Assembly (NCBI GenBank): GCA_050951545.1
Contig: JBMNJG010000007.1
Location: forward strand, 480,001 to 544,000
Source: Limnochordia bacterium
Lineage (GTDB): Bacteria; Bacillota; Limnochordia; DTU080
Direction: 5' to 3'
DNA length: 64,000 bases
This document shows positions 41,155 through 63,367 of this stretch, piece after piece. A program made the position numbers and the translations under genes. The notes under the pieces are model-generated. The model saw nothing but the letters and a program-made list of their open reading frames with translations, was not told where the DNA came from and made no database searches. Position 1 is the first letter of the stretch. The number at the start of each line of letters is the position of its first letter.

Positions 41155-41164
41155 GAGGTGTGAC

Positions 41165-41548
41165 ATGCGCAAGATCTCCGGGGATGGTGGTCCATCCATA
41201 GATCCAATACGTCAGGGAACTCGCCCATTGCAGCAGCCTGCAGGGCAAGACGTGCGCTTTTCTGATCTGTTGAGCCGACAGATGCAGCAACAGGCGGCAG
41301 TGAGATTCTCAGCGCACGCAGCCAAGCGCTTGGCTGAATCGCGTGTCGCCCTGGATACTGCTCAGGTTGAGCGACTGGAAGATGCTGTGCAGAAGGCGGC
41401 AGCAAAGGGAGCACGAGAGTCATTGATTCTCATGGACAACCTGGCTCTCGTAGTGAGTATCCGTAACCGTACTGTGATCACGGCAGTGGATGGCGAGCGC
41501 ATGAAGCAGAGCGTGTTCACGAACATCGATAGCGCAGTGATCACTTGA
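41165..41548 (+). CDS. TIGR02530-type flagellar operon protein of unknown function
   Basis: FSAHAAKRL, KAAAKGARESLILM, NRTVITAVD and VFTNIDSAVI; lies between flgD and flgE. Confidence 0.88.
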   Translation: MRKISGDGGPSIDPIRQGTRPLQQPAGQDVRFSDLLSRQMQQQAAVRFSAHAAKRLAESRVALDTAQVERLEDAVQKAAAKGARESLILMDNLALVVSIRNRTVITAVDGERMKQSVFTNIDSAVIT

Positions 41549-41601
41549 TGGGCTGGACCCCTTGGGGAGGCCCAGCGGCGCCGAAACGACAGAAGCGCCG
41601 C
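41549..41601 (+). promoter_or_regulatory. Candidate cis-regulatory two-hairpin RNA, copy 1 (flgE leader)
   Basis: TGGGCT-GGA-CCCCTTGGGG-A-GGCCCA, then GCGGCGC-CGAAACGACAGAA-GCGCCGC; second copy at 59042. Confidence 0.7.
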
Positions 41602-41630
41602 GCCAGTGCTTTGCATGAGGAGGGGTTAAC

Positions 41631-42842
41631 ATGATGCGGTCGTTGTTTTCGGGATTGGCAGGGATGCGTACCCAGCAGCAATTCATGGATGTCATCGGCA
41701 ATAACATTGCCAATGTCAACACCGCGGGCTACAAGGCTGGGCGAGTCACCTTCGAGGATCTGCTATATGAATCGATACGTGCGGCGAGCGATGAGACCAA
41801 TCCGGTACAGGTGGGCGGGGGAGCGCGGGTGAGTAGCATTGACACGATTTTCCGGCAAGGGCACCCTCAGTCCACGGGTAACCAACATGATCTGGCGATC
41901 TCGGGTGACGGGTTCCTCGTGGTACAGACGGCCGAGGGGCAGGGCTACACCCGAGCGGGTGTGCTCAGCTTCAACACGGAAGGCTATCTCGTGCACACAG
42001 CCACTGGTAACCGCGTCATGGGATGGACGGCAGATCGTAACGGCAACGTACAGCCGGGCAGGGCCCTGAAAGAACTGCGCGCTGCTCCCGGCACGCGGGC
42101 TGAGGCCGCAGCTAGCACAGGCGTGACTTTCGAAGGCCTGTTTGATGCCCGTCTGCCCTTGGGCTCCACGGTCACGAGCGATATCACCGTTATAGATCCC
42201 CTAGGGGATAGTCGTTCGCTGGTCATCACTTTTGCTCGCGACACCACTACTGATTGGAGCTGGACCGTACCGCATCCTGTGGCTGGTCAAGGCCAACTGG
42301 CTTCCGGTACCGTTACCTTTGATGCCTTGGGGCGGGTGAGCGCGGCGACTGCGGTGTCTGATCCGATCACTCTGGACATGCAAGATGGAATCACGCCACC
42401 CTTGGACTTCACACTCGATTTCACTGTCTGCGAGCTGAGCGGTGGCGAGACAAAGGTCTCTGGGCAGCAGGTCGGAGGAATAGCCGCAGGTACTCTCAAG
42501 GAAGTGGCCATAGACGAGAGCGGGCACTTGATCGGTGTTTTCTCCAATGGTGTCAACCGGGTCTTGGGTCAGCTCGCCCTGGCCACCTTTGTCAACCCCG
42601 AAGGGCTGCAGCGGGTCTCTGGCAATCTATTCGCAGAGACGCTGAGTTCAGGTGGTGCTGATACCCGAGCTCCGGGCAAAGACCGGGGGACGCTGAACCC
42701 TGGCTACCTGGAAATGAGCAATGTCGATCTTACGCAGGAGTTCGCCTCCATGATTCTGAGTCAGAGGGCTTTTCAGGCGAACTCGCGACTGATTACAGCT
42801 GCCGACGAGCTATTGCAGGAAGTGATCAATCTGAGGCGATAA
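41631..42842 (+). CDS. flgE: Flagellar hook protein FlgE
   Basis: MDVIGNNIANVNTAGYK and LEMSNVDLTQEF; 403 aa with hook D2 region. Confidence 0.93.
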   Translation: MMRSLFSGLAGMRTQQQFMDVIGNNIANVNTAGYKAGRVTFEDLLYESIRAASDETNPVQVGGGARVSSIDTIFRQGHPQSTGNQHDLAISGDGFLVVQTAEGQGYTRAGVLSFNTEGYLVHTATGNRVMGWTADRNGNVQPGRALKELRAAPGTRAEAAASTGVTFEGLFDARLPLGSTVTSDITVIDPLGDSRSLVITFARDTTTDWSWTVPHPVAGQGQLASGTVTFDALGRVSAATAVSDPITLDMQDGITPPLDFTLDFTVCELSGGETKVSGQQVGGIAAGTLKEVAIDESGHLIGVFSNGVNRVLGQLALATFVNPEGLQRVSGNLFAETLSSGGADTRAPGKDRGTLNPGYLEMSNVDLTQEFASMILSQRAFQANSRLITAADELLQEVINLRR

Positions 42843-42848
42843 CGCCTC

Positions 42849-43697
42849 GTGAGTATACCTTTACGAGGACTGGAGGGTGCGCATATGGAGATGGGCAGTC
42901 TTGCGGGTTTATTGCTTGGCGTGATCGCTTTGTCGGCAGCGATCATGACTGGGGGACATGGCCTACGCGGCTTTCTCGATCCCGTATCGGCCCTCCTTGT
43001 CGCGGGTTGCACTCTGGCGGCTACGCTGATCAACTACCCCCGCGCCCAGATTACGCAGGCGATGCGCGATGCGGCTGGGGTGTTTCAGTCTCGGCGCCAG
43101 TCACGGGCGCAGATTGCTAATCTGTTAGCTACGCTGAGCCAGCAAGCCAAACGTGAGGGTGTACTGGCCCTGGAGACTGAGATTGGCGAGTTGCCCCTTG
43201 GCATCCTGCGTCGCGGGATCCAGCGCGTTGTGGACGGCACGGTACCTGACGCTCTGGCAGAGTATCTGGAACTCGAGATCGACATGATCGAGGAGCAGGC
43301 GGCTAGATCCATAGAGGTCTTGACCTCGATGGCGGGTTACTTCCCGGCCTTTGGCATGATCGGGACGGTGGTCGGCTTGGTCAAGATGCTGTTGACCATG
43401 AAAGATCCCAGCTCCTTAGGAGCGTCAATGGGCCTGGCACTCGTCACCACCTTCTACGGCGCGGCCATGGCTAATCTGGTATGCCTCCCTATCGCAGGTC
43501 GTCTTCAGAGCCGCTGTGATGACGATCTGCTCTTGGGGCGCATGGTAGCGAGAGGTGTGATGGCTATCTCAGCCGGTGAGAATCCTTCAATCATCGAGGA
43601 GACGCTGAGCGTATTCGATCTATCTGTTGGAGACGCGGGCCAATTGAACGAGGAACAGTACGAGCCGGACGCGGCCATGAAAGCAGGGGTGCAGTAG
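42849..43697 (+). CDS. motA: Stator A subunit (MotA/PomA/MotP)
   Basis: AKREGVLALE, PAFGMIGTVVGLV and ALVTTFYG. Confidence 0.92.
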   Translation: MSIPLRGLEGAHMEMGSLAGLLLGVIALSAAIMTGGHGLRGFLDPVSALLVAGCTLAATLINYPRAQITQAMRDAAGVFQSRRQSRAQIANLLATLSQQAKREGVLALETEIGELPLGILRRGIQRVVDGTVPDALAEYLELEIDMIEEQAARSIEVLTSMAGYFPAFGMIGTVVGLVKMLLTMKDPSSLGASMGLALVTTFYGAAMANLVCLPIAGRLQSRCDDDLLLGRMVARGVMAISAGENPSIIEETLSVFDLSVGDAGQLNEEQYEPDAAMKAGVQ

Positions 43698-44429
43698 ATG
43701 CGTCGGCGTAGATCAGCAGACAAGCCTGGCTCTCCCTTGTGGATGACGACCTATGCCGATATGGTGACCAATCTACTGGCTCTGTTTGTGCTGCTCTATG
43801 CGTTTTCGGAGCTGGATGTGCAGAGGTTCCAGTCGATCATTACGTCTTTTCAAGCCCATGCGGGTGTGCTGAGTGGCAGCCTGGTCGTCGGCGAGCCGGA
43901 TGCCAGAGTTGTACCGACCGATCGACGGGGCAGGGACGAGATCGTGTTGCTTCTTGAGCAGTGGGTGCACCGCGAAAACCTGGCAGGCGCAGTGGAGATC
44001 GTCCCTTCGCAAGAGGGCGTGACACTGAGCTTCATTGACCGAGTGCTCTTTGATTCGGGCAAGGCCGATCTGCGCCCAGATTCGCGTCGGATTCTCGCCA
44101 GTTTGGGTGAGCTTCTGAGTGGTCTAGACAACCAGGTGCGCATCGAGGGGCATACCGACAATGTACCAATCAGTAACGCACAATTCCCCTCCAACTGGGA
44201 GCTGTCGGTCTACCGAGCTTCGACGGTGGTGCGTTTTCTGGAGGATGCCGCTGTAATAAGCTCTGAACGGCTGTCTGCGGTTGGCTATGGCGAGTACCGA
44301 CCAGTCATGTCGAACAAGACGGCTGCAGAAAGGCGGCGCAATCGGCGGGTTGATGTTATTGTGCTGGTCGATGTCTCTGACGCACTACCTACCGAAGCCA
44401 CACAGACGAAAAGAGAGGACGACACCTAA
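43698..44429 (+). CDS. motB: Stator B subunit (MotB/PomB/MotS) with OmpA-like domain
   Basis: WMTTYADM TM, IEGHTDN, SNWELS and NRRVDV. Confidence 0.92.
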   Translation: MRRRRSADKPGSPLWMTTYADMVTNLLALFVLLYAFSELDVQRFQSIITSFQAHAGVLSGSLVVGEPDARVVPTDRRGRDEIVLLLEQWVHRENLAGAVEIVPSQEGVTLSFIDRVLFDSGKADLRPDSRRILASLGELLSGLDNQVRIEGHTDNVPISNAQFPSNWELSVYRASTVVRFLEDAAVISSERLSAVGYGEYRPVMSNKTAAERRRNRRVDVIVLVDVSDALPTEATQTKREDDT

Positions 44430-44435
44430 CCTACC

Positions 44436-44867
44436 ATGCCGAAAAGACGCAGTTTCTTCTTCTGGGCCGCCGTCGTGTTCATAGTGGCTGCTATGGCGGG
44501 TGCCTATGGGACCACGCGCCTGTTAGGGGCTGAGGGGCACCAACGTACGGAGGCAAAGAAAGGGCCAATGTTTGAGGTCGGAGTGTTCACGGTGGATCTA
44601 GAGCCTGAGGGGCGTAGCCTCGGTCGGTTACTGCGCGTAGCGGTGGTGTTAGAGGCCTCCTCGGCCCAAGCGCTACGGCGGATAGAGGGACGTAGCGCTG
44701 AGGTGAAGCACGCTATTGTCTCCGTTTTGCGCGGTCGCGGTGCCTCTTCACTGACCGGACAGAAGGGCATGACTTCGCTGCAAACAGAGATTCGGGACTC
44801 TCTGAATGCTGTTATTGGCGATGGCGTGGTCACCGATGTCTACTTTCCAGAATTCGTGATGCAGTGA
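44436..44867 (+). CDS. fliL: Flagellar basal-body protein FliL
   Basis: N-terminal TM, FTVDL and VTDVYFPEFVMQ. Confidence 0.9.
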   Translation: MPKRRSFFFWAAVVFIVAAMAGAYGTTRLLGAEGHQRTEAKKGPMFEVGVFTVDLEPEGRSLGRLLRVAVVLEASSAQALRRIEGRSAEVKHAIVSVLRGRGASSLTGQKGMTSLQTEIRDSLNAVIGDGVVTDVYFPEFVMQ

Positions 44868-44891
44868 GTTTCCTGTGGTGGTGAGGTAGTA

Positions 44892-45893
44892 ATGGCAGGT
44901 GCATCGACGCGCTTGACGCCTGAGGAGATCAGTCTCTTGCTTGGCGCGAGGGGGACGATCATCGCTGATTCAAGCGACGCAGCGGGCGCCACGCCCTTTG
45001 ATTTCCGCCGGCAAGAGAAGATGTCCAAAGAAAACGAACAGGGGCTACGGCTGGTGCAGGGTAGTTTCGCTCGCCACCTGGCAGGTTCGTTATCGACGCT
45101 GTTGCGCAGTGTCGTTCGTGTGGAGATGAAAGAGCTGATGGAGGGTTCCTATGAGGCATTCACCTCTGATCTCCCAGGGACATGTCTGATGGCGGTGTGC
45201 AGTCTGTCGCCCCTGGAGGGCAAGATTCTCTTTGTCCTAGATCCGGAGCTGTGTCTGGTCTTAGTGGATCGGCTCATGGGAGGTCAGGGGGATGCACCGG
45301 GGCACGTGCGCGAACTCACTGAGATCGAAACGGTGCTGCTCCGTAGGGTTGTAGAGCGCATGCTGGGCTGCCTTCAGGAGGCCCTGGGCAGCATAGTCAC
45401 CGTCAAACCAGCTATTGACCAGATGGAGACCAGCCCTCACTTTGTGCAGTTGGCTTCAGGCTCCGACGCTGCTGTAGTATCCACGTTCTCTATGTCAGTG
45501 CGGACCGCCGAGGGCAAGGTTAGCCTGTGCATGCCCTACCACATGCTCAAGCCCATTATCCCTCGCTTGCACGAGCATTTCTGGTTTCGGGATCACGACA
45601 AGCCCGTTGACGGGAATGCTGAGTCACCGCAGACGCGGGAGCATGTACTTCATACCCCCGTCGAACTACGGGCAGTGCTCGGAGAGGCTCGGATCTCTGT
45701 CGCGGAACTGATCGATCTGCAGCGGGGGGATTGCATAGTGCTCGATAGGCAAGAGGCTGGGGAGCTACCGTTGTTGGTGGCTGGCAAGGATCGCTTGTGG
45801 GGGCGTCTGGGTGTGGCTGGGCGCTCATATGCGGTCGTTGTGACACGTTGGCAGGACGACCCACCTATAGGAAGCGAGGACGAACAGACATGA
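44892..45893 (+). CDS. fliM: Motor switch protein FliM
   Basis: FDFRRQEK, LMGGQG, RELTEIE and C-terminal SpoA domain. Confidence 0.92.
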   Translation: MAGASTRLTPEEISLLLGARGTIIADSSDAAGATPFDFRRQEKMSKENEQGLRLVQGSFARHLAGSLSTLLRSVVRVEMKELMEGSYEAFTSDLPGTCLMAVCSLSPLEGKILFVLDPELCLVLVDRLMGGQGDAPGHVRELTEIETVLLRRVVERMLGCLQEALGSIVTVKPAIDQMETSPHFVQLASGSDAAVVSTFSMSVRTAEGKVSLCMPYHMLKPIIPRLHEHFWFRDHDKPVDGNAESPQTREHVLHTPVELRAVLGEARISVAELIDLQRGDCIVLDRQEAGELPLLVAGKDRLWGRLGVAGRSYAVVVTRWQDDPPIGSEDEQT

Positions 45894-46474
45894 CAGCATC
45901 TGAGAGCACTTTGGTGGCCCACTGGCAGCCTTCGGCCCAGGCAGTTGTCGAGCAGCTGACGGATCTTTTCGGCGCCCGGCTAGTGATGGGTGAAGCCGAT
46001 GTTGCGGCGGGCTCTTGGGGCGAGTTGACGAGGCAGTTGCCTGTGAGTGCTACTGTAGTGGAGGTCATTCTTGATGGAGCGCACCAGGGTTCCTTGTCTA
46101 TCGTGTGGGCGGTGAGCGATACGAGCGGCCCGGCCTCGTGGCTGGGTCATTCCAGCGTGCGTGAGGGTCTTTGGGAGGCCATCTCCTCGGGCATCTCTCT
46201 AGGTTTTGGGGGCGGTGTCACTGTCGTGCCGAGCGGTGACCCGTGGAGCATATCTGATGGCAAGGTGCCTGCCAGAGCCGACGAGACCAATCTGCTGGTG
46301 GCTTGGGAAGCAGGCGGTGATGGCGTTTCACTTTATCTCGGTTTCGTCTTGCAGCAGTCTGCAGCGCGCGAGACGCAGGAGCCGGAGTCTTCTGAACCTG
46401 CACGCAAGGTGCCGACGCGGCCAGCACGGCTGCCTGCTCTGAAAGCTGAGCCCGCAGAGAGGCGATCGCCGTGA
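45890..46474 (+). CDS. Degenerate FliY-like N-terminal region, likely frameshift-separated from the FliN domain
   Basis: Overlaps fliM stop (ATGA); ends in linker-like VPTRPARLPAL; no E-x-x-N phosphatase motif seen. Confidence 0.55.
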   Translation: MTASESTLVAHWQPSAQAVVEQLTDLFGARLVMGEADVAAGSWGELTRQLPVSATVVEVILDGAHQGSLSIVWAVSDTSGPASWLGHSSVREGLWEAISSGISLGFGGGVTVVPSGDPWSISDGKVPARADETNLLVAWEAGGDGVSLYLGFVLQQSAARETQEPESSEPARKVPTRPARLPALKAEPAERRSP

Positions 46475-46487
46475 TCTGGCACTGATC

Positions 46488-46736
46488 ATGGACTTGCCGC
46501 TGCGGCTCACAGTAGAGATCGGAAGAACGCAACTGCTGATCAAGGATGTGCTGGCCCTAGGAAAAGGATCCGTGGTGGAGCTTAATCGCCTGGCAGGTGA
46601 GCCAGTGGATGTCTTAGTGAACGGCAGGCTGCTGGCCAAGGGCGAGGTCGTGGTACTTCCTGACGGTAACTTTGGAGTGCGTATGGTAGAGATCTCAGGC
46701 TCCAGTGATCGCCTGAGAAGTCTGCAGGACGAGTGA
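46488..46736 (+). CDS. fliN: FliN (SpoA) domain
   Basis: MDLPLRLTVEIGRT, ELNRLAGEPVDVLVNG and GEVVV; homology extends upstream as RDLALI. Confidence 0.9.
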   Translation: MDLPLRLTVEIGRTQLLIKDVLALGKGSVVELNRLAGEPVDVLVNGRLLAKGEVVVLPDGNFGVRMVEISGSSDRLRSLQDE

Positions 46737-47065
46737 CTATGGAGACGATGACGTTTGTTAAGGTCCTGCTGTTCATGGCCTGCCTGCTGATCGCCGCACG
46801 TCTGGTGCTTGTCTTGCATGAGCGCGGCTGGCTAACCAGCAAGAGAGTGCGTCATCTGCGGCTGCTGGACTCCCTGCAGCTGGGGCCAGAGCGCTCAGTG
46901 CACGTGGTAGAAGTGGATGACCGGCGCCTTGTGTTGGGCGCCAGTCGGGGCGCGATCACCGTCCTCTTGCAGATGCCAGCTGCAGCAGAGCCGCAGCTGG
47001 GCTGTGAACCGTTACCGCACAGGGAGGTGGATCCGAGTGCAACGACCATTCCTCCGGGGGCGTGA
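46733..47065 (+). CDS. fliO: Flagellar biosynthesis protein FliO/FliZ
   Basis: TM followed by LLDSLQLGPERSVHVVEV..RRLVLG. Confidence 0.85.
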   Translation: MTMETMTFVKVLLFMACLLIAARLVLVLHERGWLTSKRVRHLRLLDSLQLGPERSVHVVEVDDRRLVLGASRGAITVLLQMPAAAEPQLGCEPLPHREVDPSATTIPPGA

Positions 47066-47822
47066 TGTGGGCCGCTTGACTACCTGGCTTTTGGTTCTCA
47101 GCGCATGGGCTGCGCCTGTCGCCTGGGCACAGAGCGTGGCTGTGCCTCGGGTCACGTTGGCCTTTGGTGCAGCCGAAGAGCCCCAGGATCTGGTGCTGAG
47201 CCTGCAGGTCATCATCCTGTTGACGATTCTCGCCCTGGCGCCATCAATACTGGTCCTGCTGACATCCTTCACGCGGACAGTGGTTGTGCTTTCTTTCACA
47301 CGGACCGCATTGGGCACAAATCAGATGCCCCCCAACCAGGTGCTTATCGGTTTGGCGCTATTTCTCACTCTGTTCACCATGGCGCCCACGTTGCAGCAGA
47401 TCAATAGCAGCGCGCTGCAGCCGTATCTTGCGGGTGAGCTAGAGTTTCGGGCCGCTGGCCAGTTGGCTCAGCGACCCCTGCGGGCGTTCATGTTGCAGCA
47501 TACGCGGGAAAAGGACTTGCATCTGTTCCTGGAGATGGCTGGAGACGAGCCCCCGGCAGACCCTCACGAGGTGGGCACCCATGTCCTCATACCAGCCTTT
47601 GTGATCAGTGAGCTCAAGAGTGCCTTTCAGATGGGTTTCGTGCTCTACATACCTTTCATTGTGATCGATATGATCGTTGCCAGCGTGCTTCTCTCACTAG
47701 GGATGATGATGCTGCCGCCCATGATGATCTCGCTGCCGCTGAAGATTCTTCTGTTTGTGCTTGCCGATGGCTGGCATCTTGTGGTGCGTTCGATTCTGCT
47801 GAGCTACCAGGTGGGGGGGTAG
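47037..47822 (+). CDS. fliP: Export gate protein FliP
   Basis: TSFTR, PPNQVLIGLALFLT, PAFVISELK and LGMMMLPP; GTG start after AGGGAGG. Confidence 0.95.
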   Translation: MQRPFLRGRDVGRLTTWLLVLSAWAAPVAWAQSVAVPRVTLAFGAAEEPQDLVLSLQVIILLTILALAPSILVLLTSFTRTVVVLSFTRTALGTNQMPPNQVLIGLALFLTLFTMAPTLQQINSSALQPYLAGELEFRAAGQLAQRPLRAFMLQHTREKDLHLFLEMAGDEPPADPHEVGTHVLIPAFVISELKSAFQMGFVLYIPFIVIDMIVASVLLSLGMMMLPPMMISLPLKILLFVLADGWHLVVRSILLSYQVGG

Positions 47823-47826
47823 GGCC

Positions 47827-48096
47827 GTGACAGATGGGGAGGCCGTGCGCTTGGGTAGAGAGGCCCTGATCACCGTCTTGGCAGTGGCTGGGCCCGTACT
47901 GGGGTTGGGGCTGATCACGGGGCTCATAGTCAGCATCGTTCAGGCAGTGACGCAGATTCAAGAGCAGACGCTGAGTTTCGTGCCCAAGATACTGGCGGCT
48001 TTGGTGGCCATCGCCATCTTTGGTCCGTGGATGCTGCACAAACTCGTCGATTACGCCGTAACGCTTCTGTCTGCCATGCCGCAGTACGTACGATGA
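47827..48096 (+). CDS. fliQ: Export gate protein FliQ
   Basis: QAVTQIQEQTLSFVPKI. Confidence 0.95.
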   Translation: MTDGEAVRLGREALITVLAVAGPVLGLGLITGLIVSIVQAVTQIQEQTLSFVPKILAALVAIAIFGPWMLHKLVDYAVTLLSAMPQYVR

Positions 48097-48881
48097 ACAC
48101 GGTCTGGTTTTCGGAGGCTGTGGTGGAGAGCTTACTGGCCTCCTTGCCAGTCTTTGGTCGCATTCTAGGCCTGATTGTGGGTTCTCCCGTGTTAGGTCAG
48201 AAAGGGGTTCCAGTGCAGACCAAAGTGGGTTTGAGTCTATTGCTCACCGCCCTTCTTGCCCCCCATACGGCTGTACCTATGAAGTTGAACATGCTGCAGC
48301 GGGCCGCACTATGCGGTGAGGAGTTGGTGGTCGGGTTATGCATGGGGTTTGTGGCCAGGATGATCTTTGTCGCCGTACAGGTGGCTGGTCAGTTTGTGGA
48401 GGTGCCCATAGGTTTGGGCATGTCCGGTGTCCTGGATCTCACTGGAGGGGCACGGGTGCCGCTTTTTGGTCAGTTTTACTACTTCCTGATCGCCATGGTC
48501 TTTCTCACTGTCGATGGTCATCTGGCTGTGCTGCGGGCGCTGGGCGACAGCTTCCGGCTTCTGCCTCCGGGCAGTCCGCTGTGGGGAGAGGGGGCTGTCC
48601 AAGTGATCATCAAGGCCTTTGCTGACATGTTTTTGGCGGGAGTGGCGGTTGCCATACCCATTCTGGCGGCCGTTCTGGTGACGGATACGGTCTTGGCCCT
48701 GGCCAACCGAGCCGTTCCTCAGCTCAGCATTTTCTCCATCGGCTTCCCGTTGAAGACGGCTGTCGGACTGTTAGCGGCTATGGTCTCCTTGCCTTTTCTG
48801 ATCCATTGGGCCGTAGGTGCGTTGGGGCCGGAAGGTGCGCTTATCGCTCAGGTATACGGCTTTCTGCAGGGCCTGCGTTAG
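48093..48881 (+). CDS. fliR: Export gate protein FliR
   Basis: AVQVAGQ, DGHL and NRAVPQLSIFSIGFPLK. Confidence 0.93.
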   Translation: MNTVWFSEAVVESLLASLPVFGRILGLIVGSPVLGQKGVPVQTKVGLSLLLTALLAPHTAVPMKLNMLQRAALCGEELVVGLCMGFVARMIFVAVQVAGQFVEVPIGLGMSGVLDLTGGARVPLFGQFYYFLIAMVFLTVDGHLAVLRALGDSFRLLPPGSPLWGEGAVQVIIKAFADMFLAGVAVAIPILAAVLVTDTVLALANRAVPQLSIFSIGFPLKTAVGLLAAMVSLPFLIHWAVGALGPEGALIAQVYGFLQGLR

Positions 48882-48887
48882 TGAGGT

Positions 48888-49970: not shown

Positions 49971-49987
49971 CTGAAAGGAGGAGCTAA

Positions 49988-52075: not shown

Positions 52076-53108
52076 GCGGTTCGTGGCACCCACGATGCGA
52101 GATGCAGCGACTCAGGTGCATCGGGAGTTCGGACCCGATGCTCTTATCATGCGGACGGGGCGAGTGCGCCAGCCTGGTCTTTTGGGGCTGTTTCGCCCCA
52201 GATGGATTGCAGTGACCGCGGGTCTGGATGAGCGGGTCGAACGCAAAGTCCCGGAGCGGTCTGCGTCATGTGAAGCCGCCCCAGCGGCTACTAGGTCCGA
52301 GTCGCCAGTATCACAGGGGAAGCTGAACGCCTTAGCCGTTGCCCATTTGGTGAAGCGTCTGCGCCAGCAGGAGGTAGCGGAGGAGTACTTAGGTGAGCTC
52401 AGTGAGCAACTGGAAGCTCGTGTAGGAATGGGCGGTGAGGCACCGCAGAGGCATCTGCTAGGGCTATTGGCAGAGCAGATAAAGGTCGCTCGTCCATGGG
52501 CAGTAGGCTCTGAGAGACCGCTGGTGGTGCCTCTGGTGGGGCCCACTGGCGTCGGCAAGACCACGACTGTGGCTAAGCTCGCCGCTACCTATGCGCTAAG
52601 GTGTGGTTGTCGTGTGGGGTTGGTCACTGCGGACACCTATCGCGTAGCGGCTGTGGAGCAGTTGCGCACCTACGCTGATATCCTCAGCATTCCTTTGGAG
52701 GTTGTCTACTCTCCCGGCGATGTGGCTCCGGCCTTGCAACGGCTTCAGGAGCGTGAACTGGTCTTGGTGGATACAGCTGGCCGCAGTCCTCACAACCAAA
52801 GCCAGATGGAGGAGCTGCGGGCCCTCTTGGCAGAGATGGGGTCATCGCGAGTGCACCTGGTGATCAGTGCCACTACACGCCATGCCGATATGGTGGAGAT
52901 TGTCGATCGCTTCGTCTCCCATGCAGCCATAGAAGGGCTCGTCGTCACCAAGCTGGATGAGACGAACTCCTACGGCATTATCTACAACGTGATCCGCCGT
53001 ACGGGCCAATCGATTGCCTATATCACTAACGGGCAAGGGGTGCCAGAGGATATGGCGGCGGCAGATGCCCTGCAGTTGGCGCGGCTCATCGTGGGGGTGG
53101 AGACGTGA
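52065..53108 (+). CDS. flhF: SRP-family GTPase FlhF
   Basis: GPTGVGKTTTVAKLAA, DTYR, DTAGRS and TKLDET. Confidence 0.94.
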   Translation: MRIKRFVAPTMRDAATQVHREFGPDALIMRTGRVRQPGLLGLFRPRWIAVTAGLDERVERKVPERSASCEAAPAATRSESPVSQGKLNALAVAHLVKRLRQQEVAEEYLGELSEQLEARVGMGGEAPQRHLLGLLAEQIKVARPWAVGSERPLVVPLVGPTGVGKTTTVAKLAATYALRCGCRVGLVTADTYRVAAVEQLRTYADILSIPLEVVYSPGDVAPALQRLQERELVLVDTAGRSPHNQSQMEELRALLAEMGSSRVHLVISATTRHADMVEIVDRFVSHAAIEGLVVTKLDETNSYGIIYNVIRRTGQSIAYITNGQGVPEDMAAADALQLARLIVGVET

Positions 53109-53965
53109 ACGGTCAGGCAGAGGGGTTGCGGCGTCTCGTGCAGCAGGCTAGCCCCAAAAGAGCGAGGTGCGCCCGAGTGATTGCTATTACCAGTGGTAAG
53201 GGTGGGGTCGGGAAGAGTAACCTGGCCGCCAATATGGGAGCCTATTTGGCCAGCTCGGGGCAGCGCACTGCTGTTCTCGATGCCGATCTGGGCTTGGCCA
53301 ACGTCAATATTCTCCTTGGTGTGAACCCTATGTATGATATCGGGCATGTCATCTCTGGCCAGAAGCGGTTACTCGAGATAGGGGTACCGGGGCCAGCGGG
53401 GCTACAGCTTTTCCCCGGTGGTTCGGGGCTATATGAGGTGGCCAATCTATCTCCGTGGCGCTTGGAGACGTTTCTGTGCTCTCTTGCCGAGGTAGAAGAG
53501 GTTTACGACCTGCTCTTGGTGGACACGGGTGCGGGTTTGAGTGAGGCGGTCATCAAGCTGGTCTTGAGTGCAGCAGAGGTATTGCTGGTGACCACACCTG
53601 AGCCCCCGGCTCTGGCAGACGCCTATGGTATGGTGAAGATCATTGCCCAGCGCAGCCCTGGTGCGCGGGTCCATGTGGTGGTCAACATGGTCCGCCAGAT
53701 TGGCGAAGGGCAGATGGTCTTTCAGCACTTGTGGCAGGGGGCTCAACGCTTCTTGGGCTTCGAACTGAATCTGCTGGGCGAAGTGCCCTATGACCCTGCA
53801 GTCAACCGAGCGGTGCAAGAGCAGACCCCGTTTGTGCTGGCCTATCCGCGCTCACCTGCGGGCCGGGCTGTGGCGGAAGTGGCTAGTGAGCTGATCGGGA
53901 CACGGACGCCTACCGCTGGTGGGTTACGCGGTCTTATCAGACGCATGTGGCGAGCGCGTGGATGA
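53105..53965 (+). CDS. flhG: MinD-like ATPase FlhG
   Basis: SGKGGVGKSN, DADLGLAN and TPEP...DAY. Confidence 0.93.
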   Translation: MNGQAEGLRRLVQQASPKRARCARVIAITSGKGGVGKSNLAANMGAYLASSGQRTAVLDADLGLANVNILLGVNPMYDIGHVISGQKRLLEIGVPGPAGLQLFPGGSGLYEVANLSPWRLETFLCSLAEVEEVYDLLLVDTGAGLSEAVIKLVLSAAEVLLVTTPEPPALADAYGMVKIIAQRSPGARVHVVVNMVRQIGEGQMVFQHLWQGAQRFLGFELNLLGEVPYDPAVNRAVQEQTPFVLAYPRSPAGRAVAEVASELIGTRTPTAGGLRGLIRRMWRARG

Positions 53966-53980
53966 GAAGGACGAAGCAAA

Positions 53981-54775
53981 ATGTCTATTTGGAGAGAGCA
54001 CATGCCCCACGCAGTTTGTAACCTCGATGTGCATTGGCAGGCCTACAGGCGCACAGGTGATCATGCCTCTCGTGAGGCCCTTTTGGAGGCTTATGTGCCC
54101 TTGGTGAAGCAGGTAGCCGGGCAGTTGCACGTCAGGTTGCCCGCTACACTTGAACTGGGCGATCTCATCGGCTACGGCACCATGGGGCTAATTGATGCCC
54201 TGCACAAGTTCGAGCCCGGGCTGGGGGTGAAGTTCGAGACCTACGCCAGGACGCGCATTCGCGGGGCGGTTCTGGACGGTCTGCGGGTGCACGATTGGGC
54301 TCCGCGTAGCTTGCGGCAAAAGGGTCGCCAAGTTCAGCAGACCATGGCTGAACTGGAGAGCAGGCTGTGCCGCAGCGCCACGGATGCGGAGATCGCCGCC
54401 GCACTAGGTATCTCGGTTACAGAGTTTGAGGTGCTACTCACACAGCTCAATGGGCTGGCACTTGTGTCATTGGAGCAACCTCTCGATGCAGGTGCCGAGG
54501 GAGTCGGCGGCTCGCTTGCCGAGGTGCTGCCTCAGTCTACAGCCGAAGACCCGCATTCGCGCGTCGAACGGGAAGAGCGCATCGAAGCGTTGGCCGAGGC
54601 TATCGATGCGCTCCCTGAGCGAGAGAGACTGGTCATCGCTCTGTACTACTATGAGGAGCTGACCCTCAAGGAAATTGGTGCGGTGATGGGAGTAAGTGAG
54701 TCGCGTGTGTGCCAGCTACACACCCGAGCTTTGCTGCGCTTACGGGCGCGTCTGGAGCCTCAGTGTGAGGGGTAA
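53981..54775 (+). CDS. fliA: FliA/SigD/WhiG family sigma factor
   Basis: KFETYARTRIRGAVLDGLR..DW and LTLKEIG.VMGVSESRVCQLH. Confidence 0.93.
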   Translation: MSIWREHMPHAVCNLDVHWQAYRRTGDHASREALLEAYVPLVKQVAGQLHVRLPATLELGDLIGYGTMGLIDALHKFEPGLGVKFETYARTRIRGAVLDGLRVHDWAPRSLRQKGRQVQQTMAELESRLCRSATDAEIAAALGISVTEFEVLLTQLNGLALVSLEQPLDAGAEGVGGSLAEVLPQSTAEDPHSRVEREERIEALAEAIDALPERERLVIALYYYEELTLKEIGAVMGVSESRVCQLHTRALLRLRARLEPQCEG

Positions 54776-54777
54776 GC

Positions 54778-55119
54778 ATGCCCACACAACAGAACTCGAT
54801 CTTCGAAGGGGAGTGTTGGGTGTTTGCTCTGGTGCAATGCCTCATGCTTGGGGTCATCATTTGGCAACTACGCGAGATTCGGCGGCTGCTGCGGGCCCGT
54901 GTAGATAACCAGCCGGTGCAGTCGGAGCTTTCGTTTCAAGATATGCTTGATGAGCAGCTGGCCGAGGATGCGGACGAGGGCTGGGGGCAACTGCGGCGTC
55001 AGGCCCTGGACCTGCAGAGAGAGGGGATGTCTCTGGTGGACATCGCTCGTACGTTGGGTCTGGGTCGAGGCGAGGTGCAGCTGCTGCTACTTCCAGAAGA
55101 TAACGGGCGGAAAGCCTAA
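54778..55119 (+). CDS. Small membrane-anchored protein with C-terminal HTH-like motif (SwrB/DUF2802-like)
   Basis: N-terminal TM and GMSLVDIARTLGLGRGEVQLLL; follows the sigma-28 gene. Confidence 0.7.
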   Translation: MPTQQNSIFEGECWVFALVQCLMLGVIIWQLREIRRLLRARVDNQPVQSELSFQDMLDEQLAEDADEGWGQLRRQALDLQREGMSLVDIARTLGLGRGEVQLLLLPEDNGRKA

Positions 55120-55144
55120 AGAGTATCTCTCAGATGGTCGATAT
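55117..55144 (+). promoter_or_regulatory. Sigma-28 promoter of flgM
   Basis: TAAA-N16-GTCGATAT versus consensus TAAA-N15/16-GCCGATAT; -35 overlaps the upstream stop codon. Confidence 0.75.
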
Positions 55145-55193
55145 AAGAGATAGGCGCGCGGCGTGAGTCCGTTGCACAAGTGAGGTGCCGCAC

Positions 55194-55496
55194 ATGGTAA
55201 AGGCGCGTAACATCAACCGAGTACGACAACTGGAGCAACCGCAGACAGAAGGGCTGGCTGCACAGCGGCGCAGCAGGGCCTCCGAGGGCCGTGCCAAGCC
55301 GGAAAGAAAGGATCAGGTGGTCTTGTCTGACCACGCGCAGGCCTTGCTGCGGTTGCAGGAGACAGCGGCGCGCACGCCCGATGTGCGTACCGAGAAGGTT
55401 CAGGCTTTGCGGGAGGCTATCGCTCGCGGGGACTATGAGGTACCGGCGAGAGCTATCGCCGAGAAGATGCTGGACAGCGAGGGAGCTGGTTCATGA
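55194..55496 (+). CDS. flgM: Anti-sigma-28 factor FlgM
   Basis: DQVVLS and DVRTEKVQALREAIARGDYEV...IAEKML. Confidence 0.92.
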   Translation: MVKARNINRVRQLEQPQTEGLAAQRRSRASEGRAKPERKDQVVLSDHAQALLRLQETAARTPDVRTEKVQALREAIARGDYEVPARAIAEKMLDSEGAGS

Positions 55497-55876
55497 ACCC
55501 TGGGCTCTGTGAGGTGCGAGCCTGCTTACAGCAGCTGATGGAGCTGGAGCAGCGCAAACAGGAAGTGATCCTGGCCCAGGGCCACGCCCAGCTGCAGGCC
55601 ATCGCAGAGGCAGAGAGCAGCGTGTTGACTCAGCTGCATCAGGCGGTTGACGCCCTGGGCCATCCACCATCAGAGGCGGTCCTTCCCCTTGAGAGTGCCG
55701 TTGCCGAGGTACGGCGCCTGAGCGCGATCAATGGGGCTTTGTTGCAGGAGCAGTTGGCGGGGGTGGGGGTCTGCCTGGAGCTTTTGGCCCAGATGTCATC
55801 TCCCACGTATGCTCTCGGCGAGGGGCGCTGTAAGGCGGCGCAGCTCACCCCTACCGTCTTTGACGTGCGGGCGTGA
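55493..55876 (+). CDS. flgN: Export chaperone FlgN
   Basis: Helical protein between flgM and flgK with N..LL, TY and FDVRA ending. Confidence 0.75.
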   Translation: MNPGLCEVRACLQQLMELEQRKQEVILAQGHAQLQAIAEAESSVLTQLHQAVDALGHPPSEAVLPLESAVAEVRRLSAINGALLQEQLAGVGVCLELLAQMSSPTYALGEGRCKAAQLTPTVFDVRA

Positions 55877-55914
55877 TGCGCAGAAAGCCGTAGCCGATTC
55901 GAAAGGATGCGTAG

Positions 55915-57288
55915 ATGAGTAGCTTTGTGGGTTTGGAGATCGCTCGGCGGGGCTTGGCGGCCCAGCTGAAGAGCATGGAGGTGGCCGGGCAGAATATCGC
56001 CAATGCCAACTCCCCCGGGTACTCGAGACAGGTGGCTGTGCAGGCGACGGTTGTCGCTGGCCAGGCCAGCTCGGTTCGCTACGGCGGCCAAGACGCGGGG
56101 ATGTCAGGTGTAGAGATCGTGGAGATGCATCGTCACTACGACGCTTTCCTGACGGCGAGGGCGCGTGAGCTTACCGCCCAGCGGCAAGAGGTCTCTACGA
56201 GGCATGATGTACTGGCCAGGCTCGAGGAGTTGCTGCATGAGCCAGGTGAGGCAACTATCGGCACGGCCCTGGAAAACCTATGGGCCTCGTTTGGTCAACT
56301 GGCTACCAACCCGCGCAGTGAGGCGGCACGCAGTACTGTGCTGTACCAGGCGAGTACGCTCACGCGAGCCTTTTGTGAAGTGACCCATGATGTGCACTCG
56401 CTGCAGATGGAGATGGCCGAGCGTGCCCGCTCCGCTGTCGAAAATGTGAATGCGCTTACAGCTAGCCTGGCCGAAGTCAATAGCCGCATTGTGGCTAGTT
56501 CTGCGGCAGTGGGGGCGAGTGCTCCTAATGCGCTCTTGGATGCACGCGATACCCTGTTGGAGGAGTTAGCGGGTCTCGTAGATATCCGGGTGATAGAGCA
56601 GGCCCATGGCGAGGTGCGGGTGTTGGTGGCGGGGCGCTCCTTAGTGGAGGGCATCGGGCAGGCTGAGATGGAGATGACCTCTGTCGCTGGTCAGCTGGAG
56701 CTGTCGCTGGCTGGGGTGGCTGTAGCCGAAGTGGGTGGCTCACTGGGAGGTGCTCTACTTTCTCATAACACAGACATCCCGAAGTATGTGGCGCTCTTAG
56801 GCGAGCTGGCCCGTGATGTGATTACCCAAGTCAACACAGTGCACGCTCAGGGCTATGACATGGATGGGCACCCGGCCGTAGACTTCTTCACCGGGAGCTG
56901 CGCTAGCAGTATGGCGGTGGCCGTCGACGGTCGCCAGATGGCCGTATCGGCCGCAGCAGATGGCAGCGATGGGGTGGTGGCCCAGAGGCTGGCAGATCTG
57001 CGTCACTCGCCAGCGAGCGCCGAGCTGGCTCCGGGAGCTAGGTACGTGGGGCTGATCTCGGAGCTGGGAGCCGAGGCCGCCTCTCTGGGCGTTCGGCGTG
57101 AGAATACCCAGGTGCTGACGCAGTTTGCGCAGATGCGGCGGGATTCTCTCTCGGGAGTTTCGCTGGATGAGGAGCTGGCGGATGTCATGCGCTTTCAGCA
57201 GGCCTATGCTGCTGCAGCTCGAATGCTCACCGCCATTGATGAAGCGCTCGATGTGTTGATCAACCGGACAGGTCTCGTGGGCAGGTAG
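55915..57288 (+). CDS. flgK: Hook-associated protein FlgK
   Basis: GQNIANANSPGYSRQ, LLDARD and SGVSLDEE. Confidence 0.94.
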   Translation: MSSFVGLEIARRGLAAQLKSMEVAGQNIANANSPGYSRQVAVQATVVAGQASSVRYGGQDAGMSGVEIVEMHRHYDAFLTARARELTAQRQEVSTRHDVLARLEELLHEPGEATIGTALENLWASFGQLATNPRSEAARSTVLYQASTLTRAFCEVTHDVHSLQMEMAERARSAVENVNALTASLAEVNSRIVASSAAVGASAPNALLDARDTLLEELAGLVDIRVIEQAHGEVRVLVAGRSLVEGIGQAEMEMTSVAGQLELSLAGVAVAEVGGSLGGALLSHNTDIPKYVALLGELARDVITQVNTVHAQGYDMDGHPAVDFFTGSCASSMAVAVDGRQMAVSAAADGSDGVVAQRLADLRHSPASAELAPGARYVGLISELGAEAASLGVRRENTQVLTQFAQMRRDSLSGVSLDEELADVMRFQQAYAAAARMLTAIDEALDVLINRTGLVGR

Positions 57289-57294
57289 AGGAGG

Positions 57295-58104
57295 TTGGGG
57301 GCTTTGCGGATTACTCATGCACAGACCGCACAAAGCGTGAAAGAGCAGTTGGCTCAGGGGGCGGGACGGATGCAGCAGGCCTGGCGCCACGTCTCTTCGG
57401 GTAGGCGGGTGGAAAGACCCTCCGATGATCCGGCTGCGACAGCCCGCATTCTCAGCTATCGCTCATTACTCAGTGGGGTCGAGCAGCGGCGCTTCCAGGT
57501 AGAGGCGGGGCACTCTTTGCTGACCACGGTGGACACCGTACTAGGCAGCGCCGACTTGCTGCTGATGGAGGCGCAAGATCTGGCGCTCAATGCGGGATCG
57601 CCCGGGGTTTCTGAGGACGACAGGCGCTCCATGGCAGAGAAGGTGCAGGGACTCATTGAGCAGCTGGAAGACATCGCTGAGACGAAATACGACAACCGAG
57701 CCCTCTTTGCCGCCGGAGCGGCCAACACTTCGGCTGTAGATCTCGCAGGCTTGGATCTTTCCGCCCAGAACGTCTTCGCTACTCCCCTGGCGGCATTGCA
57801 GGATCTATATGACGAACTCTCCGCTGGCGATCGAGTCAGTGATGTGACGCTTGCTGCGTTGAAGGGTGGCCTGGATGCGCTGGTGAGCTACCGGACGCAG
57901 GTGGGAGTCCGCGTCAACCGCTTGGAGAGTCTGACCAGTCGTCTGCTGACGATGGAGCATGACCTGGTTGATCGCAAGAGCGGGGACGAGGAAGTGGATC
58001 TCGGTCAGGCCATGATCGACCTCAAGGAAGAAGAGACGGCCTACCAGGCGGCCCTAGCGGCTAGTGCGCGTCTCATGCGGATAAGCCTTGTCGATTTTCT
58101 CTGA
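57295..58104 (+). CDS. flgL: Hook-associated protein FlgL (short)
   Basis: SSGRRVERPSDDP and YQAAL...ISLVDFL. Confidence 0.9.
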   Translation: MGALRITHAQTAQSVKEQLAQGAGRMQQAWRHVSSGRRVERPSDDPAATARILSYRSLLSGVEQRRFQVEAGHSLLTTVDTVLGSADLLLMEAQDLALNAGSPGVSEDDRRSMAEKVQGLIEQLEDIAETKYDNRALFAAGAANTSAVDLAGLDLSAQNVFATPLAALQDLYDELSAGDRVSDVTLAALKGGLDALVSYRTQVGVRVNRLESLTSRLLTMEHDLVDRKSGDEEVDLGQAMIDLKEEETAYQAALAASARLMRISLVDFL

Positions 58105-58244
58105 AATTCGGTGCCTGAGGCAGGAATCGGTGGTCACTGCTGACGAATAGGGTTCATGACTTGCGACACATGAAGAAAGGCATTCATGACGGCATGTGGG
58201 TCGTCACGGACGAGGCAGAAGAGGGGCCCGAAAGGTGGTGACGT

Positions 58245-59003
58245 ATGGTACGTGGACTTTACACCAGTGCTCTGGGCATGCTGGGCAGCATGGAAAGGGT
58301 AGATATCTTAAGTCACAACCTGGCGAATGTGAATACTCCAGCCTTCAAGAAAGTGGGAAGTACCTCACGGAGCTTTTCGGAGATAATTGCCCGCTGTGAG
58401 AGGCGACCACACGATGGGCGTACTGTCTCGACCCTGATTGGAAACGTAGGAGTGGGCATCCAGGTGGATAGCACCTACTTTCTGCTGAACGAGGGTCCAC
58501 TGCGCGAGACGGGGAGCCAGCTGCAGGCCGCTATTCGTGGATCGGGCTTCTTTGTCGTAGAGACTCCAGATGGGCTAGGCTACACGCGCGATGGCCGTTT
58601 TCTCGTTGACAGCGAGGGTTGGCTGGTCACGTTGGACGGTCATCGGGTCTTGGGTGAGAATGGGCCGCTGGCGGTTTCCACTGACGATGCCATGATCACG
58701 GATGCGGGTGAGCTGTTGTGTGACGGTCAACCTGTGGGGCGTCTGCGTTGTGTGGATTTCGCTCATCCGGAAGGGCTCGTTTTGCAGGGCGGTAGTCTTT
58801 ACCGTGCTGGGACTGCCAGTGGTCCGCCCCTGATGCGGGAGTGTCATCTGGCGGTCGGCTTTCTGGAAGAGTCCAACGTCAACGTGGTTTCGGAGATGGT
58901 CGAGCTGATCTCAGCCACGCGGTTGTATGAGGCGAATCAGAGGGTGATCTTGGCCTATGATGATTGTCTGGGAAAGGCGGTGGGTGAAGTAGGCAAGGTG
59001 TAG
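58245..59003 (+). CDS. flgF: Basal-body rod protein FlgF (FlhO-like)
   Basis: MVRGLYTSA, HNLANVNTPAFK, YTRDG and LEESNVN. Confidence 0.88.
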   Translation: MVRGLYTSALGMLGSMERVDILSHNLANVNTPAFKKVGSTSRSFSEIIARCERRPHDGRTVSTLIGNVGVGIQVDSTYFLLNEGPLRETGSQLQAAIRGSGFFVVETPDGLGYTRDGRFLVDSEGWLVTLDGHRVLGENGPLAVSTDDAMITDAGELLCDGQPVGRLRCVDFAHPEGLVLQGGSLYRAGTASGPPLMRECHLAVGFLEESNVNVVSEMVELISATRLYEANQRVILAYDDCLGKAVGEVGKV

Positions 59004-59041
59004 GTAGCACACGAGCAGTGCGCGGCCGGGGCAAAATGAGA

Positions 59042-59095
59042 GGGCTGGACCGCATATGCGGAAGCCTATGGGTCACCGAACGAATGAGGTGACCC
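59042..59095 (+). promoter_or_regulatory. Candidate cis-regulatory two-hairpin RNA, copy 2 (flgG leader)
   Basis: GGGCT-GGA-CCGCATATGCGG-A-AGCCT, then GGGTCACC-GAACGAATGA-GGTGACCC. Confidence 0.7.
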
Positions 59096-59150
59096 CGGTG
59101 AAGATGCCTCTGAGCTGCGCAACTACAGCGTCTAGGGAGGCGTATCACCG

Positions 59151-60975: not shown

Positions 60976-60989
60976 GGAGGTGATGGGCA

Positions 60990-61628: not shown

Positions 61629-61643
61629 AGCAGCGGAAGGGGC

Positions 61644-62777: not shown

Positions 62778-62779
62778 CC

Positions 62780-63284: not shown

Positions 63285-63367
63285 ACACAGTAGCGAAGAT
63301 GAGGCGGGCGGCCGCTGCCTCGTCTCGCCGATGTGGACAGAACGATGCACTAGGGAGGCCAAAGCAG

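Follow-up and report, generated by a model that had tools for sequence, protein, structure and literature searches.

The window analysed here is a 64,000-nucleotide stretch of a Limnochordia bacterium genome (assembly GCA_050951545.1, contig JBMNJG010000007.1, positions 480,001 to 544,000, forward strand), and its subject is a two-hairpin RNA motif that stands in the leaders of two flagellar genes, flgE (hook protein) and flgG (distal rod protein). A preliminary description, made from the letters alone, had placed the two copies at 41549-41601 and 59042-59095; we found both there with the quoted sequence and reproduced the two-hairpin fold. Folded alone, each copy forms two hairpins, at -27.4 kcal/mol (z -2.4) for copy 1 and -27.7 kcal/mol (z -4.6) for copy 2. 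The names given to the two genes are borne out by profile matches of 330 bits (FlgE) and 393 bits (FlgG), the products being 403 and 262 amino acids long. Copy 1 begins directly past the stop codon of flg_new and ends 29 nt before the flgE start, while copy 2 begins 38 nt past flgF and ends 55 nt before the flgG start (Table 1). No terminator-like site, U-tract or sigma-70 consensus was found when both window copies were scanned. The sequence 3' of the second hairpin reads GCCAGTGC in copy 1 and CGGTGAAG in copy 2, and the absence of a U-tract from either agrees with the earlier statement that they are not terminators.

The motif is rare in its own genome. A strict pattern of the first hairpin (GGCTGGACC..GGRRGCC) has two occurrences in the window, where none is expected, and these are the only ones in the whole 3.64 Mb genome. 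A FlgG search of 40 relatives yielded 30 loci, and the motif was present upstream of flgG in 28 of the 30, the window's own locus included. From 25 of these 28 flgG leaders (L013, L021 and L024, which carry long inserts in hairpin 1, were excluded) we built a covariance model, R1, the seed of which contained the window's flgG copy and no flgE copy. In the window's genome R1 matched the flgG leader with 62 bits and the flgE leader with 47.8 bits (E 8.7e-7), and no third site reached E<=1. Since the model was made from flgG leaders only, its recovery of the flgE copy is an independent test that both copies belong to one RNA family, as had been proposed. In an unfiltered search the site ranked third in the window reached only 14.5 bits (E 0.21), so that the motif is, as first noted, absent before the window's other flagellar genes. 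This third site (36848-36918) lies within an open reading frame (ORF; 36457-37830) and begins with AUGGGCUGG, the remainder of the motif being absent; we take it to be a chance match.

Structure and conservation of the motif

The motif is about 58 nt long and consists of two adjacent hairpins, P2 and P3; it stands in the intercistronic leaders of flgE and flgG and, elsewhere in the Firmicutes, of rod paralogues of the two. Across the 25 flgG leaders of the seed, 91% of cells are paired, compared with 77% after shuffling, and the covariation score is 0.465, compared with 0.205 for shuffled alignments (0 of 500 shuffles reached it) and 0.08-0.14 for slid controls. Changes on both sides were seen at 10 of 16 pairs in these leaders, and RNAalifold run without guidance arrived at the same structure. 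The pattern persists in 100 instances from across the phylum, where, in an alignment fitted to the model, 94.8% of cells are paired, compensatory changes occur at 14 of 15 pairs, and about 55 G-U cells are compatible with pairing on the motif strand only. The covariation score and the compensatory changes both uphold the view that this is a structured RNA under selection.

The phylum instances have the consensus RGGC-YGGA-CC..GG-RR-GCCY and, after it, a 7-bp stem that carries the loop Y-GA-M-Y-GA-Y-N-GA-R; the conserved form is GGC-YGGA-C...G-RR-GCC for P2 and N-GA-NY-GA-NN-GA-N for the 12-nt loop of P3. The GG of the P2 internal loop is invariant (100/100) and the next base is A in 96 of 99 instances. 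Six G/A positions of the P3 loop are 91-100% conserved, with GGA being read there in just 16 of 96 instances. Conservation thus sits in the internal and terminal loops, and the junction bases vary. The internal loop is asymmetric and conserved, as the preliminary description had it, but the family form is YGGA opposite RR rather than GGA opposite A. Mutual information among the unpaired columns gave a signal only at the 65-76 closing pair and at G66-A75, the latter being compatible with tandem sheared G-A pairs, and revealed no long-range partner for the loops. We rejected a kink-turn for the P2 internal loop. In a kink-turn, a bulge of three bases precedes tandem sheared G-A and A-G pairs, and position 1n is A; in P2 four bases stand opposite two, and among 99 instances the would-be 1n position has A 49 times and G 48 times.

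We analysed the distribution of the motif by covariance-model search. Among Limnochordia it was found in 34 of 41 genomes, with at most two matches in each, and all 57 matches lie ahead of the two genes, 33 before flgG and 24 before flgE; 20 of the 23 flgE-type matches from other genomes were fetched, and FlgE follows in 20 of 20, the remaining three having been assigned by coordinates only. In an even sample of the phylum (151 genomes, 125 of them with FlgE/F/G-family genes), 93 of the 125 flagellated genomes and none of the 26 non-flagellated ones carry the motif, with 1-4 matches per genome. We examined 126 of these matches (26 loci and 100 fetched; four more, at contig ends, were skipped): the next gene on the same strand is of the FlgE/FlgG family for 122, flagellin for two, and two are orphans. 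The distance from the end of the match to the start codon has a median of 31 nt, and is 43 nt or less in 84 of 122. The expected enrichment before flgE and flgG in relatives is therefore evident in both samples (57/57 and 122/126), and, with at most four copies per genome and two in the window's own, the motif is not a REP-like repeat. None of 52 flgG loci whose titles name another phylum has a match. In the phylum of a Spirochaetia-titled genome it was found in 0 of 81 genomes, with at most 67 candidates scored per genome and a set that held no positive control; in the phylum of an Atribacterota-titled genome it occurs in 2 of 61, and the Atribacterota-titled genome has it ahead of both flgE and flgG.

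We conclude, with very little doubt, that the motif is a real, conserved and gene-specific structured RNA. The two flagellin-linked copies (L143 and L144, in G101 and G141) lie in apparent flagellin 5' untranslated regions, a rare third class of target; sigma-28-like promoters are seen upstream of them, and the start codon follows some 80-240 nt further on.

Table 1. Parts of the two motif copies and the genes around them, in window positions.
Feature	Position	Strand	Evidence or remark
Motif copy 1 (flgE leader), extent of covariance-model match	41548..41606	+	R1 47.8 bits; E 1.6e-8 in window, 8.7e-7 in genome
Copy 1, hairpin P2	41549..41574	+	fold and family structure
Copy 1, P2 outer stem	41549-41553 x 41570-41574	+	
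Copy 1, P2 internal loop	TGGA 41554-41557 vs AG 41568-41569	+	
Copy 1, P2 inner stem	41558-41560 x 41565-41567	+	
Copy 1, S1 anti-Shine-Dalgarno strand UGGACCCCUUGGG	41554..41566	+	able to pair with AGGGGUU 41621-41627; predicted duplex -13.6 kcal/mol
Copy 1, hairpin P3	41575..41601	+	stem 41575-41581 x 41595-41601; fold, alignment to model
Copy 1, P3 loop CGAAACGACAGAA	41582-41594	+	1 base above the family's 12
flgE Shine-Dalgarno sequence GAGGAGGGG	41617-41625	+	sequence
flgE start codon	41631-41633	+	ORF, FlgE match
flg_new (TIGR02530 / PF12611), gene 5' of copy 1	41105..41548	+	stop codon 41546-41548 adjoins motif
flgE (hook protein), served by copy 1	41631..42842	+	NF004241 330 bits; TIGR03506 289 bits
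Motif copy 2 (flgG leader), extent of covariance-model match	59040..59100	+	R1 62 bits, genome E 8e-10; sequence part of seed
Copy 2, hairpin P2	59042..59067	+	fold and family structure
Copy 2, P2 outer stem	59042-59045 x 59064-59067	+	
Copy 2, P2 internal loop	TGGA 59046-59049 vs AA 59062-59063	+	
Copy 2, P2 inner stem	59050-59053 x 59058-59061	+	
Copy 2, hairpin P3	59070..59095	+	stem 59070-59076 x 59089-59095
Copy 2, P3 loop CGAACGAATGAG	59077-59088	+	
Copy 2, P1 5' strand, predicted (anti-anti-Shine-Dalgarno)	59019..59033	+	minimum-energy fold of 58995-59170
Copy 2, P1 3' strand, predicted	59105..59121	+	includes anti-Shine-Dalgarno GCCUCU 59106-59111
flgG Shine-Dalgarno sequence GGGAGG	59135-59140	+	sequence
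flgG start codon	59151-59153	+	ORF, FlgG match
flgF, cistron 5' of copy 2	58245..59003	+	profile matches and place before flgG
flgG (distal rod protein), served by copy 2	59151..59939	+	NF009456 393 bits; TIGR02488 374 bits

Some features of the neighbouring genes deserve mention. We call the cistron before flgG flgF because of its position and its profile matches, which are below the curated cut-off for TIGR02490 (166.6 bits, cut-off 178.5) and above it for TIGR03506 (175 bits, cut-off 70.25). The listed ORFs of FlgD (40732-41154) and flg_new share 50 nt, and, as the flg_new profile matches only from residue 52 on, the true start of that gene is probably further 3'. Downstream of flgG (59965-63151) are flgA, flgH, flgI and a gene for a rod-binding, FlgJ-like protein; this Limnochordia genome thus encodes L- and P-rings, as expected for a diderm Firmicute, together with the Firmicute-type flg_new. 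A small DUF6115/DUF2802-like gene (54778-55119) lies between fliA (53981-54775) and flgM (55185-55496).

Alternative pairings and the proposed switch

In many minimum-energy folds of the leaders the Shine-Dalgarno (SD) sequence, and not the 3' strand of hairpin 1, is the partner of that hairpin's 5' strand. We compared a 13-nt segment (S1) that begins with the Y of YGGAC with the translation initiation region (TIR; -22 to +15 about the start codon) in 118 instances. The mean S1:TIR duplex was -10.40 kcal/mol, compared with -9.51 +/- 0.15 when partners were permuted within a class (0 of 2000 permutations reached the observed value), -7.6 for a control segment and -7.25 for shuffled S1; in 27 de-duplicated representatives the value was -8.77, compared with -7.78 +/- 0.33 for permuted partners (reached in 9 of 5000). 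Duplexes of -9 kcal/mol or better were predicted in 75 of the 118, of which 62 fall on the SD region, 5 on the start codon and 8 span the two. Bases of the loop covary with bases 5' of the SD; in L084, for example, GGACCUCUUUG would pair over 11 bp with a stretch inside UCAAGGAGGUCA. For the window's flgE leader, pairing of GGACCCCU with AGGGGUU of the SD is predicted at -13.6 kcal/mol, and the minimum-energy fold, in which S1 and the SD are paired, is at -48.5 kcal/mol, compared with -47.1 when the motif is enforced, a gap of 1.4 kcal/mol; the S1 and SD pairing also appears in a separate fold of 41540-41640. The folded motif takes up a predicted median share of 0.35 of the ensemble (91 instances), and the element thus looks bistable.

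We noted three further features of this region. By eye, among the flgE leaders of Limnochordia the rare Arg codon AGG is found in 7 of 10 with a CCUC inner stem and in none of the 11 others; this codon gives AUGAGGUC, which is complementary to GACCUCA. A pairing of the P3 loop with codons 3-4 (GAACG with CGUUC, GACCG with CGGUC) fits 12 of 21 Limnochordia flgE leaders by eye, and was rejected: a 13-nt control segment over the 5' side of P3 gave only -7.6 kcal/mol, about the shuffled level. The 3' tail of the organism's own 16S rRNA (GCGGCUGGAUCACCUCCUUUCU; G000 contigs C3, C11 and C16) shares the 7-mer GGCUGGA with the motif (41551-41557 and 59043-59049), where it stands just before the CCNC anti-SD-like strand. 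This likeness, noted post hoc and with the shared elements in a different order, could be mimicry or chance.

A second arrangement was found in the flgG leaders of Limnochordia. In 28 of these, the 32 nt 5' of the motif pair with the first 45 nt 3' of it at -23.1 kcal/mol, compared with -16.0 +/- 0.74 for permuted partners (0 of 5000 reached the observed value), and the 3' strands of this outer helix, P1, are rich in CUCCC/CCUCC. In the window's flgG leader, P1 (59019-59033 with 59105-59121) is part of the minimum-energy fold of 58995-59170, a predicted three-way junction at -74.3 kcal/mol. When the 5' flank was left out (59030-59155), GCCUCU paired with the SD (z -5.3). Both arrangements are also present in the distant genome G188.

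These pairings suggest how the motif might work. In a compact design, that of most flgE leaders, the window's included, the 5' strand of P2, made up of YGGAC, one strand of the inner stem and bases of the loop, would act as an anti-SD towards the SD or start-codon region about 55-70 nt downstream, with the 3' strand of P2 mimicking this target. In an extended design, that of the Limnochordia flgG leaders, again including the window's, P1 would enclose P2 and P3, and its 3' strand would be the anti-SD. In either design the folded motif would leave the SD free (ON) and the unfolded motif would sequester it (OFF), so that two designs with the same pairing outcome point to one rule. The cis pairings leave the invariant unpaired bases unexplained, and we therefore infer a trans-acting partner: these bases may form a docking surface on which a flagellum-specific factor would stabilize the folded, ON state. 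It is also possible that the ribosome terminating at the upstream stop codon resets the fold. In 83 of 113 instances no more than 10 nt separate the end of the upstream ORF from the match (median stop-to-match distance -1 nt in FlgE-class and +5 nt in FlgG-class leaders), and a terminating ribosome would thus unwind S1. Such abutment may reset the switch, or it may merely reflect compact operons.

As alternative pairings link folding of the motif to exposure of the SD or start codon, a translational switch is favoured over the protein-binding site or processing site that had been considered alongside it, and the broader proposal of a post-transcriptional element in the flgE and flgG leaders gains support. 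That the motif is a translational ON/OFF switch of flgE and flgG of this kind appears to us rather probable from the modelled pairings, and through it the motif may set the supply of hook and distal-rod subunits. Several observations weigh against this interpretation. S1:TIR pairing is weaker than -9 kcal/mol in 43 of the 118 instances, and in the window's own flgG leader it is just -8.8 kcal/mol. The permutation tests for S1:TIR and P1 ignore phylogeny, and de-duplication shrinks the S1:TIR effect, which is still present; the complementarity of S1 to the SD is in part a by-product of the frequent CCUC/GAGG inner stem. All energies come from nearest-neighbour models, and RNAfold is blind to a pseudoknot in which the outer stem of P2 is kept while S1 pairs downstream. 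A purely cis switch gives no explanation for the invariant P3 loop, for which no partner was found. Thirty-two of the 125 flagellated genomes have no match, which means that they can do without the element or that it has diverged in them. Finally, the two orphan copies (L076, G075:C45; L107, G141:C56) lie directly past the stop codon of a rod-like gene. L076 is followed by a terminator-like hairpin and a U-run and L107 by just a short U-run, and the downstream genes are non-flagellar (by eye, an LCP-family gene and a WecB/TagA-like gene); these orphans may be remnants of a lost flgG, or may point to a role of the motif at 3' ends.

If the switch operates as proposed, the motif would be a phylum-wide handle, open to mutation, on how the supply of hook and distal rod is matched to assembly. 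Post-transcriptional control of the rod and hook (middle) genes is poorly understood in Firmicutes, where the CsrA-FliW-flagellin loop is known to act on only the final stage of assembly. The pairing of one sensor domain with two expression platforms of the same logic would add a family to the structured leaders of bacteria. Since the motif is short and the predicted switch simple, its mechanism could be settled quickly in culturable carriers by reporters, probing and pull-down.

CsrA and other explanations

If a trans-acting factor is involved, CsrA is the leading candidate, and yet a rather doubtful one. The motif would be a CsrA platform, with P2 being a CsrA-type GGA hairpin into which a helix has been inserted after the GGA, an idea that we hold only tentatively. 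Indeed, P2 without its inner stem reads GGGC-YGGA-RR-GCCC, like hairpins of flagellin leaders, and the GG (100/100) and following A (96/99) of its loop are those expected of such a site. CsrA is encoded in the window's genome (profile match 100 bits) and in 40 of 41 relatives, the sole exception, G014, also being without the motif. Among the phylum sample's flagellated genomes, 84 of 102 with CsrA carry the motif, compared with 9 of 23 without CsrA (odds ratio 7.3; naive Fisher p 7e-5, uncorrected for phylogeny); the link may not be causal, as the motif and CsrA both track lineage. In flagellin leaders of the same class there are hairpins whose stem encloses (A/C)NGGA(U/C), and CAAGGAGG comes after them. 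GGA also occurs at the SD (GAGGAGGGG in the window's flgE, GGGAGG in its flgG, GGAGG in most family members), which discriminates little for a CsrA-type leader, an SD-overlapping GGA being typical of most strong SDs. On the other side, the motif presents its GGA in an internal loop between two helices, whereas the class's hag leaders have it in terminal loops, and the P3 loop consists of three GA steps with GGA in only 16 of 96 instances; we know of no CsrA specificity that explains this GA-rich loop. In addition, 9 of 93 motif-bearing genomes lack CsrA above the cut-off, 18 flagellated genomes with CsrA lack the motif, and a profile search found no FliW (PF02623) in the window's genome, which is 94% complete.

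CsrA could act in either of two ways. It might bridge the GGA of P2 and that of the SD and thereby repress, for which hag of Bacillus subtilis is a precedent. Alternatively, CsrA on the folded motif might hold S1 or P1 and so activate flgE and flgG, reciprocally to its repression of flagellin; this is a specific form of the switch proposed above and presupposes that free CsrA is present before the hook is completed. CsrA would then bind the YGGA loop and the GA-rich P3 loop and keep the anti-SD off the SD; upon hook completion it would be titrated, the motif would sequester the SD and flagellin translation would open. That CsrA, free until the hook-basal body is done, activates flgE and flgG through the folded motif while repressing flagellin, with the reverse thereafter, is a conjecture that we consider unlikely as it stands. 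If true, the motif would be the missing middle-gene arm of the Firmicute CsrA checkpoint and a natural protein-activated RNA ON switch.

Some observations on csrA and flagellin genes may be recorded here. The genome's single csrA (G000:C11:277358-277516; L270) stands after a comFC-like phosphoribosyltransferase gene and before a terminator hairpin; in G023, flagellin has csrA just 5' of it on the same contig. The flagellin loci L291-L320 of Limnochordia relatives have well-formed hairpins with (A/C)NGGA(U/C) loops and then CAAGGAGG, which we take to resemble the classic two-site CsrA arrangement. The flagellin ORF of the window is listed from 63203 (to 64000), with Pfam Flagellin_N matching from residue 58; its start is likely the ATG at 63368, after GGGAGGCC, and a sigma-28-like CTCAAG-N16-CGATAT stands upstream. 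The leader (about 63285-63367) holds UGGACAGAACGAUG, which echoes the YGGAC and GAACGA words of the motif, and the covariance model finds no match in it.

We considered three explanations that do without a protein. The first copies to be seen are GC-rich inverted repeats, which is the sole point in favour of a chance similarity, a REP-like repeat, a terminator or a DNA operator; such readings are refuted by copy number (two in the genome), by the phylum-wide distribution before the same two genes, and by compensatory changes and strand-specific G-U pairs, as well as by the missing U-tract, and we give them practically no credence. A small-molecule riboswitch, in which P2 and P3 (with P1) would be an aptamer that turns on hook and rod synthesis, agrees well with a covarying aptamer-like domain with invariant unpaired bases, two folds predicted to be near in energy, and one conserved sensor domain serving two expression platforms with a shared logic. 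However, its regulon would consist of flagellar structural genes (122 of the FlgE/G family and 2 flagellin among 126, with no transporter or biosynthetic gene), which makes a metabolite ligand unlikely. There are at most four copies per genome; the conserved bases are in internal and terminal loops, as is commoner for protein sites or tertiary contacts, while the junction varies; and neither c-di-GMP-I/II nor any other Rfam riboswitch matches. We regard this explanation as improbable.

A purely cis-acting element would be either a coupling device reset by terminating ribosomes or a 5' stabilizer or processing site that raises the yield of FlgE and FlgG, which are high-copy axial parts. It would be consistent with the upstream stop codons within 10 nt of the match, with the window's flgE copy beginning at a stop codon, and with the placement of the motif directly ahead of strong SDs. 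Yet a terminating ribosome would open S1 in the compact design (ON) and the P1 5' strand in the extended one (OFF), so the two designs disagree; abutment may be a matter of compact operons; the flagellin-linked copies are in apparent 5' untranslated regions, with no cistron in the approximately 80 nt shown upstream; and neither the YGGA/RR loop nor the six near-invariant G/A positions in the loop of P3 would have a role. An element acting in cis alone thus seems unlikely to us, if less so than a riboswitch, and we prefer the translational switch with a trans-acting partner.

Relation to known families and systems

We compared the motif with catalogued RNAs. Rfam 15 has no match over the whole window at the gathering threshold. 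A search of both leaders at E<=10 gave only chance matches to unrelated families, of which CRISPR-DR53 alone overlaps a copy; it lies on the opposite strand, with 22 bits against a gathering score of 45. Among 20 diverse instances searched at E<=1 none had a match on the motif, in keeping with the initial impression that it belongs to no named family. No description was found in the literature, motif-discovery papers included, a search that covered neither supplements, which may list unnamed motifs, nor subscription journals. We class the motif as a new family and, in kind, as a probable structured leader switch.

The synthesis of hook protein in Salmonella is reportedly controlled post-transcriptionally via the flgE leader, in step with assembly. 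That control belongs to Proteobacteria, and the motif was absent before flgG in the 52 loci whose titles name other phyla. Two families listed in PMC2864571, Termite-flg (RF01729) and flg-Rhizobiales (RF01736), are candidate cis-regulatory RNAs before flagellar genes, and are thus, like our motif, structured RNA candidates in flagellar leaders. Their models do not match the window copies (E<=10) or the 20 diverse instances (E<=1), and they come from other taxa than the Firmicutes of the motif, namely a termite-gut metagenome and Rhizobiales. The GEMM element (c-di-GMP-I, RF01051; PMC1950547) is likewise built of two neighbouring hairpins, the first of which holds a small conserved internal loop, and it sometimes precedes flagellar genes, flgG among them. 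In contrast to GEMM, the motif has no GNRA tetraloop-receptor arrangement and no Rfam match, and it is confined to flagellar structural genes, whereas the GEMM regulon is broad. With translational riboswitches and protein-dependent leaders in general it would share a sensor domain, variable platforms and alternative pairings that decide access to the SD; it differs from them in its purely flagellar structural regulon and in having its conservation in loops and not in junctions.

The closest parallel may be the control by CsrA of the hag/flaA flagellin leaders of Bacillus, Clostridioides and Campylobacter (PMC6529632, PMC4894983 and PMC8523840). As in those leaders, a structured GGA lies upstream of the SD in the 5' leader of a gene for a flagellar axial protein, and translation is, by prediction in the case of the motif, tied to flagellar assembly; motif-bearing genomes moreover carry CsrA and classic hag-type hairpins. 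The motif differs in that its GGA is in an internal loop within a covarying two-hairpin fold with a second invariant loop, and in that it serves the hook and the distal rod, and seldom flagellin, with the folded state predicted to mean ON.

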